DNA of 64,000 nucleotides, taken from the NCBI GenBank assembly GCA_043797665.1, contig JAZDPL010000038.1, forward strand, positions 26,940 to 90,939. The letters run 5' to 3'. A program made the translations under genes and the position numbers. The DNA comes from Candidatus Omnitrophota bacterium. Lineage in GTDB: Bacteria > Ratteibacteria > UBA8468 > MWAK01. Positions 14,324-16,135 of the stretch are shown in pieces. Under the pieces are notes generated by a model. The model ran no database searches, was not told the DNA's origin, and saw nothing but the letters and a program-made list of their open reading frames with translations. Within the stretch, counting starts at the first letter, position 1, and each line of letters begins with the position of its first letter.

Positions 14324-16135
14324 GTGAAAAACGAAAATGATAAAAGGTCTCGGCCGGAGATTTCTTTTTTAGTTCAGTATGTTTTGCCATTGTTATCTAC
14401 GCAGTATGGTTATCCAAGACCAGAAGATTATGAGCATGTAAAGATAGCCGGAATAAAAATTAGAATTGCTTCAGGCGTTAAGAAACCAGACGTGGTATAT
14501 TACTGGGAAGGTGTGCCAGTTCTGCTTATTGAGGCAAAAAAACAAGGGAAATCTGAAAGCGATGCACAGGACCAAGCATTATCCTATGTTAGAAATTTCC
14601 CAGTTGGTGATGAAAATTATTCTAAGGATGGTCGCCGGCCTCGTTTTGTCATTACAACTATAGGCAAACAGATAAATTTCTATATCCATAGATATGAAAT
14701 AAGGGATCAGGACTTTAAAGACGGGCTTGAAAAATTGGATATTATACCTTCTTTCGCTGAAGTCCTTTCTGGATATGGGCTTTTGCCCGGCTATGTTCCT
14801 AAATCCCTATCGCTTTCTGATTTTCGAAGAAATTTTCTTAATGAATTAATGGCGATTTACAAGTTAGGAAAATTGATTACAAAAGACGTGATTTCTGCCG
14901 TGGTATCCCAAATAATTAGTTATTTAGAAGACCAGGCGAATTATACCAGCAGACAACCCTATGTTTCGCTGGATTCACACAAAGATAGACAATCCCAAAT
15001 TCGCCAACTTTTTAATCAATATGACATAATTAATTCCTTAAATCCTGAAAATGCCAGAGAATTCAGACAATTTGTTCTGCGTTCTTTTCAAGGTACTAAC
15101 CTCAACCAGTACATGACGGAGCAGTGTGTGATTGCTTTTATGATAGATATGATTGATATTCAACCAAATTGGAAAGTCTTAGACTTTGAATGTGGTAGCG
15201 GCGGTTTTTTAGCGGCAGTAATTAACAAAGGAAATGTCCCTTTAGAAAACATTATGGGTATTGACATAGATTCTCTTCCATATACAATAGCCAAAACTTA
15301 TCTGGCGATATATTTTGGCTGTTTCGGAAAAAACAGCATTGATTCTATCCATGTATATCCTAAAAACGGACTTTTCTATTATGGTAATGACTGGGATTTG
15401 GTTATTGGTAATCCAGCGGGTAGTAATCAATACAGAAAAGATGATATAACCAAAGTGCTTGAAAATTTGGAAGCAGACATAGACCGGAACGGAAAACCAG
15501 ACAATTTTTCTGAGTATAATTTTTCGGTTCAACAAGCGGTTCGTTCGGTTAAGGTCGGTGGCAAAATATGTTTAATATTGCCCGAAGGTTTCTTTTCCAA
15601 TTCACAAGACGAAATATTAAGAAAGTATGTGGCTAAGCATTGTAAGGTATTAGCCATTTCAAGTCTACCAAGAGGCGTCTTTAAGATAGGTACAGATGTA
15701 AGGCAATCTCAACGAGGAAGTAAAACCGCGAGCATGAAAATGTCAATCCTTTACGCGCAAAAGATTATGGAAGTAAAAGATGAATCAGGTCTCAATCTAT
15801 CCGATGTTGATTTAAATTACCCCGTTTTTCTATCCAGTATAAATCCTCCAGAAGGAACAAAGGGCGAAATTAAAGATTGGCTTGAGCCAAGATTAGTCGT
15901 TGTTTTAAACCAATGGCGCTCCTGGCAAGAAAACCTAATTTTGACTGACCCCGGTGAAGTTAAGATTGAGAGCCCTAAAAAAATCATCGGAAAGAAACAG
16001 CATAAAAAAGAAACAGAAGGACTTCTTTTTGTAACTATCCCGCCGGAAAAGGAATTACCTCAATACAAAAAGAAAATAGTTGCGAAAACCAAAATCAGCA
16101 GTGGTCTAAAAGAGATTTTCAAAAAGAGAAAATAA
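14324..16135 (+). CDS. HSDR_N-type PD-(D/E)xK nuclease domain fused to a SAM-MTase-like domain with degenerate motif IV (NPAG)
   Basis: N-terminal 120 aa match the Type I R-subunit N-terminal nuclease fold (EISFLVQYVLPLLSTQYGY...KPDVVYY...VLLIEAKK...AQDQALSYV). The central domain has MTase motif I VLDFECGSGGFLAAV and a motif-X-like YMTEQCVIAFM. Where NPPY/F is expected the sequence reads LVIGNPAGSN. GTG start after a good RBS. Confidence 0.65.
   Translation: MKNENDKRSRPEISFLVQYVLPLLSTQYGYPRPEDYEHVKIAGIKIRIASGVKKPDVVYYWEGVPVLLIEAKKQGKSESDAQDQALSYVRNFPVGDENYSKDGRRPRFVITTIGKQINFYIHRYEIRDQDFKDGLEKLDIIPSFAEVLSGYGLLPGYVPKSLSLSDFRRNFLNELMAIYKLGKLITKDVISAVVSQIISYLEDQANYTSRQPYVSLDSHKDRQSQIRQLFNQYDIINSLNPENAREFRQFVLRSFQGTNLNQYMTEQCVIAFMIDMIDIQPNWKVLDFECGSGGFLAAVINKGNVPLENIMGIDIDSLPYTIAKTYLAIYFGCFGKNSIDSIHVYPKNGLFYYGNDWDLVIGNPAGSNQYRKDDITKVLENLEADIDRNGKPDNFSEYNFSVQQAVRSVKVGGKICLILPEGFFSNSQDEILRKYVAKHCKVLAISSLPRGVFKIGTDVRQSQRGSKTASMKMSILYAQKIMEVKDESGLNLSDVDLNYPVFLSSINPPEGTKGEIKDWLEPRLVVVLNQWRSWQENLILTDPGEVKIESPKKIIGKKQHKKETEGLLFVTIPPEKELPQYKKKIVAKTKISSGLKEIFKKRK

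Follow-up and report, generated by a model that had tools for sequence, protein, structure and literature searches.

The Nuc-M* protein

A 64,000-nucleotide (nt) stretch of a Candidatus Omnitrophota contig, here called the window, carries neighbouring genes for an SNF2-family ATPase, a DNA methyltransferase (MTase), a DUF3800 protein and a protein in which a nuclease is joined to an MTase-like fold. The last of these, which we call Nuc-M*, is the subject of this report; its MTase-like part, M*, has a variant catalytic motif IV. The open reading frame (ORF), 14324 to 16135 on the forward strand with a GTG start, encodes 603 residues identical to those of a protein deposited from a Candidatus Omnitrophota metagenome-assembled genome (P0001), where it is annotated 'N-6 DNA methylase'. 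The following features were assigned; SAM is S-adenosylmethionine, TRD target recognition domain and AF2 AlphaFold2.

14324 to 16135, forward strand: Nuc-M*, made up of a PD-(D/E)xK nuclease, a helical connector, a gamma-class MTase-like fold and a C-terminal helix and tail, with no TRD
14357 to 14539, forward strand: nuclease catalytic residues E12, D56 and E70-x-K72, from conservation; PDVVYY...LLIEAK lies at nt 14486-14539
15104 to 15379, forward strand: SAM-binding motifs X, I, II and III, from conserved columns
15392 to 15433, forward strand: variant motif IV, WDLVIGNPAGSNQY, with NPAG at 15410-15421 and the invariant Tyr370 at 15431-15433
15509 to 15691, forward strand: motifs V-VI (SEYNFS...LILPEGFFSN) and VIII (LPRGVF), from conserved columns
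15869 to 15934, forward strand: conserved C-terminal helix with W519, L520, L524, W531 and W534, from AF2 (helix 516-537), invariant columns and the reach of the hhalign alignment
15956 to 16135, forward strand: Lys-rich disordered tail with a short conserved terminal helix, TKISSGLKEIFK, from AF2 and conservation

Pfam recognises N6_Mtase (PF02384) in Nuc-M* at residues 251-454 (E 2e-15) and, more weakly, Eco57I (E 2e-7). At residues 50-120 an HSDR_N match scores 23.7 bits, slightly below its cutoff of 25.1, and HSDR_N is present in the precomputed annotation of many homologues. An AF2 model built from an alignment of 81 sequences (A1; pLDDT 81.8, pTM 0.80) comprises an α/β nuclease (residues 12-137), a helical connector (144-255), an MTase fold (267-505) and a long helix (516-537), followed by a disordered Lys-rich segment (545-593, pLDDT <50) and a short terminal helix (593-599). 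The best folds found for it in the PDB with Foldseek are the RM subunit of BsaXI (E 2e-16), lmo1582 (2f8l), Type I HsdM, the Type IIG enzyme BpuSI and the Type IIL enzyme DrdV, and CamA is also matched; by sequence the best PDB match is lmo1582 (E 5e-8). These matches and the model bear out the nuclease-MTase fusion that an earlier note on this DNA had described.

Conservation was assessed on the best 120 of 306 homologues found among 5.8 billion proteins. These 120 have at least 50% identity over the aligned region and cover 87-100% of the query, some being shorter and tail-less. The putative nuclease residues E12, D56, E70 and K72 are kept in at least 98% of them; in alignment A1 the first three are invariant and K72 is present in at least 90%, and the D..ExK signature is retained in the full-length loci found in GTDB genomes. 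The N-terminus is thus of the HSDR_N PD-(D/E)xK type, as the earlier note had it, and given the invariance of its catalytic residues the nuclease is almost certainly active.

The MTase motifs run in the order X-I-II-III-IV-V-VI-VIII, as part of a Rossmann-like MTase fold. Motifs X (NQYMTEQCVIAFM, nt 15104-15142) and I (VLDFECGSGGFL, nt 15176-15211) are followed by motif II, IMGIDID, and motif III, PKNGLFY. The SAM-binding pattern D/E-x-x-x-G-x-G, with an acidic residue in motif II, appears here as DFECGSGGF and D314, all invariant or nearly so. Residues conserved at a level of at least 98% are Q262, Y263, T265 and E266 in motif X; D287, F288, E289, C290, G291, S292 and G294 in motif I; G312 and D314 in motif II; N348, G349 and L350 in motif III; S396, E397, Y398, Q404, C416, L419, P420, G422, F424 and N426 in motifs V-VI; and L448, P449, R450, G451 and F453 in motif VIII. 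Motifs I and X, described previously as intact, are therefore also fixed across the family. Helix 516-537 matches, by hhalign, the helix that closes the MTase part of the neighbouring methyltransferase just ahead of its TRD. Nuc-M* itself lacks a TRD, the chain ending after the MTase fold, this helix and the tail.

Motif IV is NPAG, and invariantly so

In Nuc-M* the sequence LVIGNPAGSN spans residues 359-368, with N363-P364-A365-G366 standing where the earlier note had placed motif IV. Four independent alignments agree on this assignment. A phmmer comparison with solved Type I M subunits sets 'dlvignpagsn' on 'DVILTNPPFGG' (3ufb) and 'DVILANPPfGT' (2okc), and BLASTP against the neighbouring MTase (29% identity over ~300 residues, E 1e-23) sets DLVIGNP..AG on DLVVGNPPYGG. 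When the family profile is aligned by hhalign with a profile of 27 partner MTases (probability 99.8%, E 3e-30), the GNPAGS columns coincide with the GNPPYG columns. In an hmmalign alignment of 149 cluster representatives, the glycine column holds Phe or Tyr in nearly all of the distant relatives aligned there. Because these alignments concur, NPAG is assigned to the canonical motif IV, with G366 in the column of the stacking Tyr or Phe. A true aromatic motif IV elsewhere in the protein was considered and rejected: all four alignments put NPAG on NPPY/F, and no second (D/N/S)PP(Y/F/W) occurs anywhere in the Nuc-M* sequence.

What is replaced can be read from the structure of BsaXI. There F360 and F526 π-stack on the flipped adenine, and N523, P524 and T612 form hydrogen bonds with it, F526 being the fourth residue of the motif N523-P524-P525-F526 (PMC11997821). 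By alignment, G366 of Nuc-M* is the counterpart of F526, while the Asn and Pro of the catalytic loop are kept.

The substitution is no peculiarity of this genome. In place of the canonical (N/D/S)-P-P-(Y/F/W), NP[AS]G is found in the best 120 of the 306 homologues and in all 34 of the GTDB loci. Among the former, N363, P364, G366 and Y370 are invariant (120/120), the Tyr lying seven residues after the Asn and four after the Gly; position 365 is Ala in 114 and Ser in 6, and W357 is kept in 117. The 34 loci, with identities down to 40%, all show NP[AS]G[SGN]xxY, and they come from Omnitrophota, Nitrospirota, Nitrospinota, Actinomycetota, Planctomycetota, Elusimicrobiota, Firestonebacteria, Gammaproteobacteria, several phyla of the candidate phyla radiation (CPR) and one Methanosarcinales bin. 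Taken over more than 150 sequences, the four residues N363, P364, G366 and Y370 do not vary. Given this family-wide invariance, we reject the idea that motif IV has decayed locally or been pseudogenised.

An exhaustive hidden Markov model (HMM) search of 1.84 billion cluster representatives separates three tiers of proteins. The first is the Nuc-M* family itself, with NP[AS]GxxxY. The second consists of sister nuclease-MTase proteins of ~500-590 residues, also TRD-less, in which the motif is NPPG[GN]xx[YF] or NPPAxxxY; a few members with NPPAG have no downstream Tyr. The third holds remoter proteins, Type IIG-like or resembling Type I M subunits, with canonical NPPF or NPPY. The pattern of these sequences is that of an old, selected, clade-wide trait, in which Gly or Ala replaces the aromatic residue and an aromatic residue stands four positions downstream. 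Such invariance points to selection for a working pocket, with an aromatic residue that may have shifted by four positions. Since both the SAM site and the Asn-Pro-x-Gly...Tyr pattern are strongly constrained, the domain would seem to be neither a decayed relic nor a bare scaffold.

Partner genes

Upstream of Nuc-M* lie three further genes, in the same orientation:

8774 to 11728, forward strand: SNF2-family ATPase of 984 residues, with a coiled-coil-rich C-terminal third; Pfam SNF2-rel_dom (E 6e-34) and Helicase_C
11730 to 13469, forward strand: partner M-TRD, a gamma-class N6-MTase of 579 residues with NPPYGG at 12138-12149 and one Type I S-like TRD (residues ~323-579)
13466 to 14209, forward strand: DUF3800 protein of 247 residues (Pfam DUF3800, E 2e-17), with FLDETGD near the N-terminus

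The SNF2 protein is presumed to be the double-stranded DNA translocase of the system. The partner M-TRD, noted previously as a separately encoded MTase-TRD with a canonical motif, does keep its aromatic residue. It matches N6_Mtase (E 2e-24), the PADLOC model Specificity_I (residues 362-514) and the NCBIfam MAD5 S-subunit model (323-541), and its best PDB sequence match is the BsaXI RM subunit. It has 29% identity to the MTase fold of Nuc-M*; M* is a paralogue of this neighbour, one in which all SAM-binding motifs and the Asn-Pro of the catalytic loop are kept.

The gene order SNF2 (~975-985 residues), M and Nuc-M* recurs in nearly all related loci with enough flanking sequence. With M alone or as M plus S, this synteny spans Omnitrophota, Nitrospirota, Actinomycetota, Planctomycetota, CPR phyla and the archaeal bin, and the SNF2 gene is syntenic in the window and ~20 other loci. 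M takes two forms, either fused to one Type I S-like TRD (~580-680 residues) or as an M of ~345 residues with a separate S of 255-280 residues. In split cases such as L003 (S of 255 residues) and L037, the split falls exactly at the M/TRD junction of the window protein. Wherever M is on the contig its aromatic residue is kept, as NPPY, NPPF or NFPY (L003), and wherever upstream sequence is on the contig a canonical M adjoins Nuc-M*, except in the orphan L032. In the sister tier with NPPG, an M, S, Nuc-M* arrangement occurs and there is no helicase; the genes on either side of L043 are ligA and rarA, and in L044 the gene immediately upstream is a Methylase_S gene.

Two of these loci deserve separate mention. 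In the Nitrospirota locus L003 (8183-9220), the NFPY of the partner methylase has its second residue changed and its aromatic residue retained. The orphan Nuc-M* of L032 (4770-10809) has a tail and no adjacent M-TRD or SNF2 gene; its neighbours encode a 970-residue protein with helix-turn-helix, N6_N4 MTase and C5 MTase parts and a 302-residue HATPase_c_4 protein.

The DUF3800 gene sits between M-TRD and Nuc-M*, with a 4-nt overlap at the M-TRD stop. That slot is filled in this way only in the window, L007, L009 and L016 (67-82% identity), and so in 4 of ~45 loci. For this reason DUF3800 was rejected as a core component and is regarded as a mobile accessory insert.

The C-terminal tail and the SNF2 gene

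A Lys-rich tail of 59-75 residues closes Nuc-M* in the window and 19 other SNF2-linked proteins, with a terminal helix of the form (T/S)K(I/V)(S/N)xxLx(D/E)(L/I)F. The tail is thus found in 20 loci with SNF2, and it is absent from 7 intact systems without SNF2, whose Nuc-M* proteins end shortly after helix 516-537. The SNF2-free loci, each with at least 2.8 kb of upstream sequence, are L011, L021, L034, L035, L037, L040 and L047, with ilvD and ilvB lying upstream in L037. Helicase-free versions with two or three genes are represented by L037, L040, L047 and L043. There are three exceptions: L018 and L027 are SNF2-linked with damaged or short 3' ends, and the orphan L032 has a tail. Fisher's exact test gives p = 1e-4 with these exceptions and 1e-6 without them, values that are uncorrected for the phylogenetic relatedness of the loci. 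The tail-less loci form at least three sequence-distinct groups.

This distribution suggests that the tail docks the SNF2 motor, as a docking peptide gained and lost together with it; recruitment of the helicase is proposed because the SNF2-free lineages are also without the tail. The earlier note had missed both this coupling and the accessory status of DUF3800.

Genomic setting

The module in the window is a low-GC island, 8774-16356, with a GC fraction of 0.365 against 0.47-0.49 in its flanks. It splits an ABC transporter operon, separating the binding-protein gene (8028-8777) from the permease and ATPase genes (16353-17664), within a neighbourhood of molybdenum-cofactor genes. Both junctions are overlaps: the SNF2 start with the binding-protein stop (ATGA, 8774-8777), and the stop of the last island ORF with the permease start (16353-16356). 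That last ORF (16141-16356, 71 residues), at the 3' edge of the island, has two CxxC pairs and is zinc-ribbon-like; it gave no tblastn match in 49 related loci.

Several related loci, among them L005, L046, L047 and L049, lie in defence islands with SIR2, TIR, Schlafen, AbiJ and HEPN_AbiU2 genes. Further neighbours in these four are a DUF87 ATPase beside SIR2, AlbA_2, NOV_C and toxin-antitoxin pairs. A search of the PLSDB plasmids returned only distant MTases (at most 30% identity) and no member of the Nuc-M* family.

Elsewhere in the window, 60001-62000 is a second low-GC stretch (0.365), with positive GC and AT skew like the island and ORFs at 60850-61755 and 61724-62479; this too may be an insert gained by horizontal transfer. 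The unrelated reverse-strand gene at 21843-24644 encodes a protein of 933 residues with many RCC1-like repeats (WTWG.N..GQLGDGT), repeated β-rich modules and a C-terminal membrane segment.

A proposed sensor and adaptor role for M*

What might an MTase fold with this motif IV do in a restriction subunit? Nuc-M* combines a nuclease with a TRD-less MTase fold whose variant motif is invariant, it is encoded beside a canonical M (L032 apart), and its tail occurs together with SNF2. We propose that Nuc-M* is the restriction subunit of a hybrid R-M system, part Type IIB and part Type I-like, in which M* serves as a SAM-binding sensor and adaptor, a proposal that in our judgement stands an even chance of being right. 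Protective methylation would be carried out by M-TRD, with its NPPY motif, and M* would not be the methylase of the cell. M* would bind SAM and, by way of its MTase fold and C-terminal helix, would attach the nuclease to the specificity module, M-TRD or S. It would probably probe the flipped target base without methylating it efficiently, much as the MTase pocket does in Type IIG, IIL and IIB enzymes, so that cleavage is licensed only at unmethylated sites. In versions that include SNF2, the Lys-rich tail with its terminal helix would recruit the translocase, and such recruitment would turn a cutter acting at a fixed position into an ATP-dependent, Type I-like enzyme.

Several points weigh against this proposal. 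The loss of an aromatic residue and the gain of another four positions on, in two deep clades, looks like the relocation of a working residue. The retained Asn-Pro and SAM motifs would fit residual or full methyl transfer equally well. Where M and TRD are fused, it is hard to picture how a second MTase fold gains access to the same TRD. Finally, the link between tail and SNF2 is a correlation only, among loci that are phylogenetically related.

The main alternative is that M* is an active DNA MTase whose stacking aromatic residue has moved to Tyr370 (NPxGxxxY). Nuc-M* would then be a bifunctional R-M protein like BcgI-A or the BsaXI RM subunit, and the separate M a second methylase as in Eco57I and BpmI, perhaps methylating the other strand or serving maintenance. 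N363, P364, Y370 and all the SAM motifs are invariant; the aromatic residue four positions after the Gly is likewise fixed in the sister clade, as NPPGxxx[YF]; and in lmo1582 (2f8l), whose motif reads DLPVGYY, a Tyr aligns with Y370. To our knowledge no DNA MTase activity has been demonstrated for lmo1582. A precedent for an RM enzyme accompanied by a separate M exists among Type IIG systems (PMC3874165). However, Gly is seen here in no characterised class A or gamma enzyme, N-P-P-(Y/F) being the motif of the gold-standard set (bioRxiv 10.1101/2023.12.13.571470), and in PacII the change of NPPF/NPPY to APPA abolishes activity (PMC5100572). Moreover, the constant presence of an M with NPPY/NPPF-type motif (NFPY in L003; L032 apart) would be largely redundant if both methylated the same site. 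On balance we consider an active M* possible but rather unlikely. Catalytic inactivity, which the earlier note thought probable, is plausible but not established, since the invariant Tyr370 could stand in for the lost aromatic residue; N363, P364 and G366 are invariant as well, and the sister clade has NPPGxxxY.

In a second alternative M* would be purely structural, binding neither SAM nor a flipped base and simply holding the nuclease on M-TRD. The model here is METTL14, which lost its SAM site. Loss of the canonical aromatic residue, the lack of a TRD and the C-terminal helix shared with M would all suit a scaffold. Yet a scaffold has no need of the invariant DFECGSG, D314, N348 and N363-P364, which are among the most conserved columns, and the domain of Nuc-M* keeps its SAM site, unlike METTL14. 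We think such a role improbable.

Least probable of all is a reading of the locus as class 1 DISARM or a BREX-related system, either a remnant or a subtype, with Nuc-M* an incidental neighbour: the SNF2 protein does most resemble DrmD models (PADLOC DrmD 621 bits; NCBIfam DrmD_b 610 bits), but the latter score is below the cutoff of 950, the NCBIfam DrmD score is 240 against 610, SNF2, M and Nuc-M* are strictly syntenic, and neither the window ORFs nor the ~45 related loci contain DrmA, DrmB (DUF1998) or DrmC (PLD). Class 1 DISARM was rejected on these grounds. So were the BREX-related BR systems, centred on DUF499 (PMC12839542), and ARMADA, the centre of these systems being DUF499 or YprA, neither of which is present. 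The resemblance to MADS goes no further than a generic MTase match to MAD2 (78 bits; cutoff 720).

The sensor and adaptor proposal can be carried a step further. The NPxGxxxY domains may be catalytically silent, SAM-loaded pseudo-methyltransferases that flip and inspect the target adenine and leave it unmodified, coupled through the tail to an SNF2 motor, and the whole may constitute an unclassified, ATP-dependent type of R-M system. We offer this extended version tentatively, as something more probably wrong than right. If it were true, the sensing of methylation would have been split from methylation itself, and the restriction complex would never protect invading DNA by accident. In the bifunctional Type IIG, IIB and IIL enzymes a single MTase pocket both protects and senses, and the enzyme may methylate an unmodified phage site where it should cut. 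A SAM-binding, aromatic-less nuclease subunit with a separate, canonical methylase would resolve this conflict between protection and sensing and would give prokaryotes an equivalent of the pairs of active and inactive MTases found in eukaryotes.

The family has a wider interest also. It occurs widely among uncultivated phyla under no other annotation than 'N-6 DNA methylase', and present catalogues of defence systems probably place it wrongly. That the SNF2 motor and the tail are cleanly gained or lost together offers a tractable case of a fixed-site cutter becoming a translocating enzyme. The components are compact, and specificity could be engineered by exchange of S or TRD.

Comparison with known systems

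Nuc-M* is most like the Type IIB enzymes BsaXI and BcgI, in which a PD-(D/E)xK nuclease, a helical connector and a gamma-class MTase form one chain without a TRD and specificity is supplied by a separate S-type protein. There are differences, however. The RM subunit of BsaXI is an active methylase (NPPF) with no separate M, whereas Nuc-M* has Gly in this position and a co-encoded canonical M (L032 apart). In Type IIB systems S has two TRDs, compared with the single TRD found here, fused to M or on a separate S. Type IIB enzymes are also ATP-independent and work without a helicase, a state seen here only in the tail-less minority (L037, L040, L047).

The Type IIG enzymes Eco57I, BpmI, BpuSI and BseRI combine a nuclease-MTase fusion with a separately encoded M (PMC3874165). 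This is the layout seen here, and Pfam Eco57I matches both Nuc-M* and the partner M. In Type IIG enzymes, by contrast, a TRD and a canonical NPPY/F motif are found in the fusion chain itself; in the present system it is the separate M that bears or adjoins the TRD, and the motif of the fusion is NPAG. What the earlier note called an unusual division of labour is thus real as regards the separate M-TRD, but it typifies a widespread family and is not confined to this genome, and the Type IIG enzymes provide a precedent (PMC3874165).

With the Type I enzymes EcoKI and EcoR124I, and with the Type ISP enzyme LlaGI, the system shares a nuclease, here of the HSDR_N type, an ATP-dependent superfamily 2 motor, a gamma-class M and an S-type TRD. 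Compared with the Type I HsdM/HsdS core, the gamma-class M and S-like TRD are both present, but the TRD is single. HsdR unites nuclease and motor, whereas here the 603-residue M-like subunit carries the nuclease and a separate SNF2 protein of 984 residues, not of the HsdR type, provides the motor; in Type ISP enzymes everything is in one chain. Class 1 DISARM also has a DrmD-like SNF2 ATPase adjoining an N6-adenine MTase. Its DrmMI has ~1300 residues, however, against 345-680 for M, and Nuc-M* has no DISARM counterpart.

Two further comparisons concern M* alone. In METTL3-METTL14 and in the Mod2 dimer of EcoP15I (PMC4490356) two MTase folds work as a pair and only one transfers methyl, which makes them an analogy and no more. 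These proteins belong to other MTase classes and have no nuclease, and SAM binding is lost in METTL14, whereas the SAM motifs are invariant here. In lmo1582 (2f8l), a putative MTase of the YtxK-like kind, the motif IV sequence DLPVGYY has a Gly and then a Tyr, aligned with G366 and Y370. It differs in being a stand-alone protein of 344 residues with no nuclease, no known R-M context and no demonstrated DNA substrate.

Searches of the open-access literature turned up neither a system of the SNF2, M(-S), nuclease-M* type nor an NPxG motif IV, although such absence is not proof. Apparently, then, this is an R-M system that has so far gone undescribed. Its general kind, restriction-modification, is a familiar one; what sets it apart from the Type IIG precedent is the missing TRD of the fusion, the variant motif IV and the SNF2 partner.

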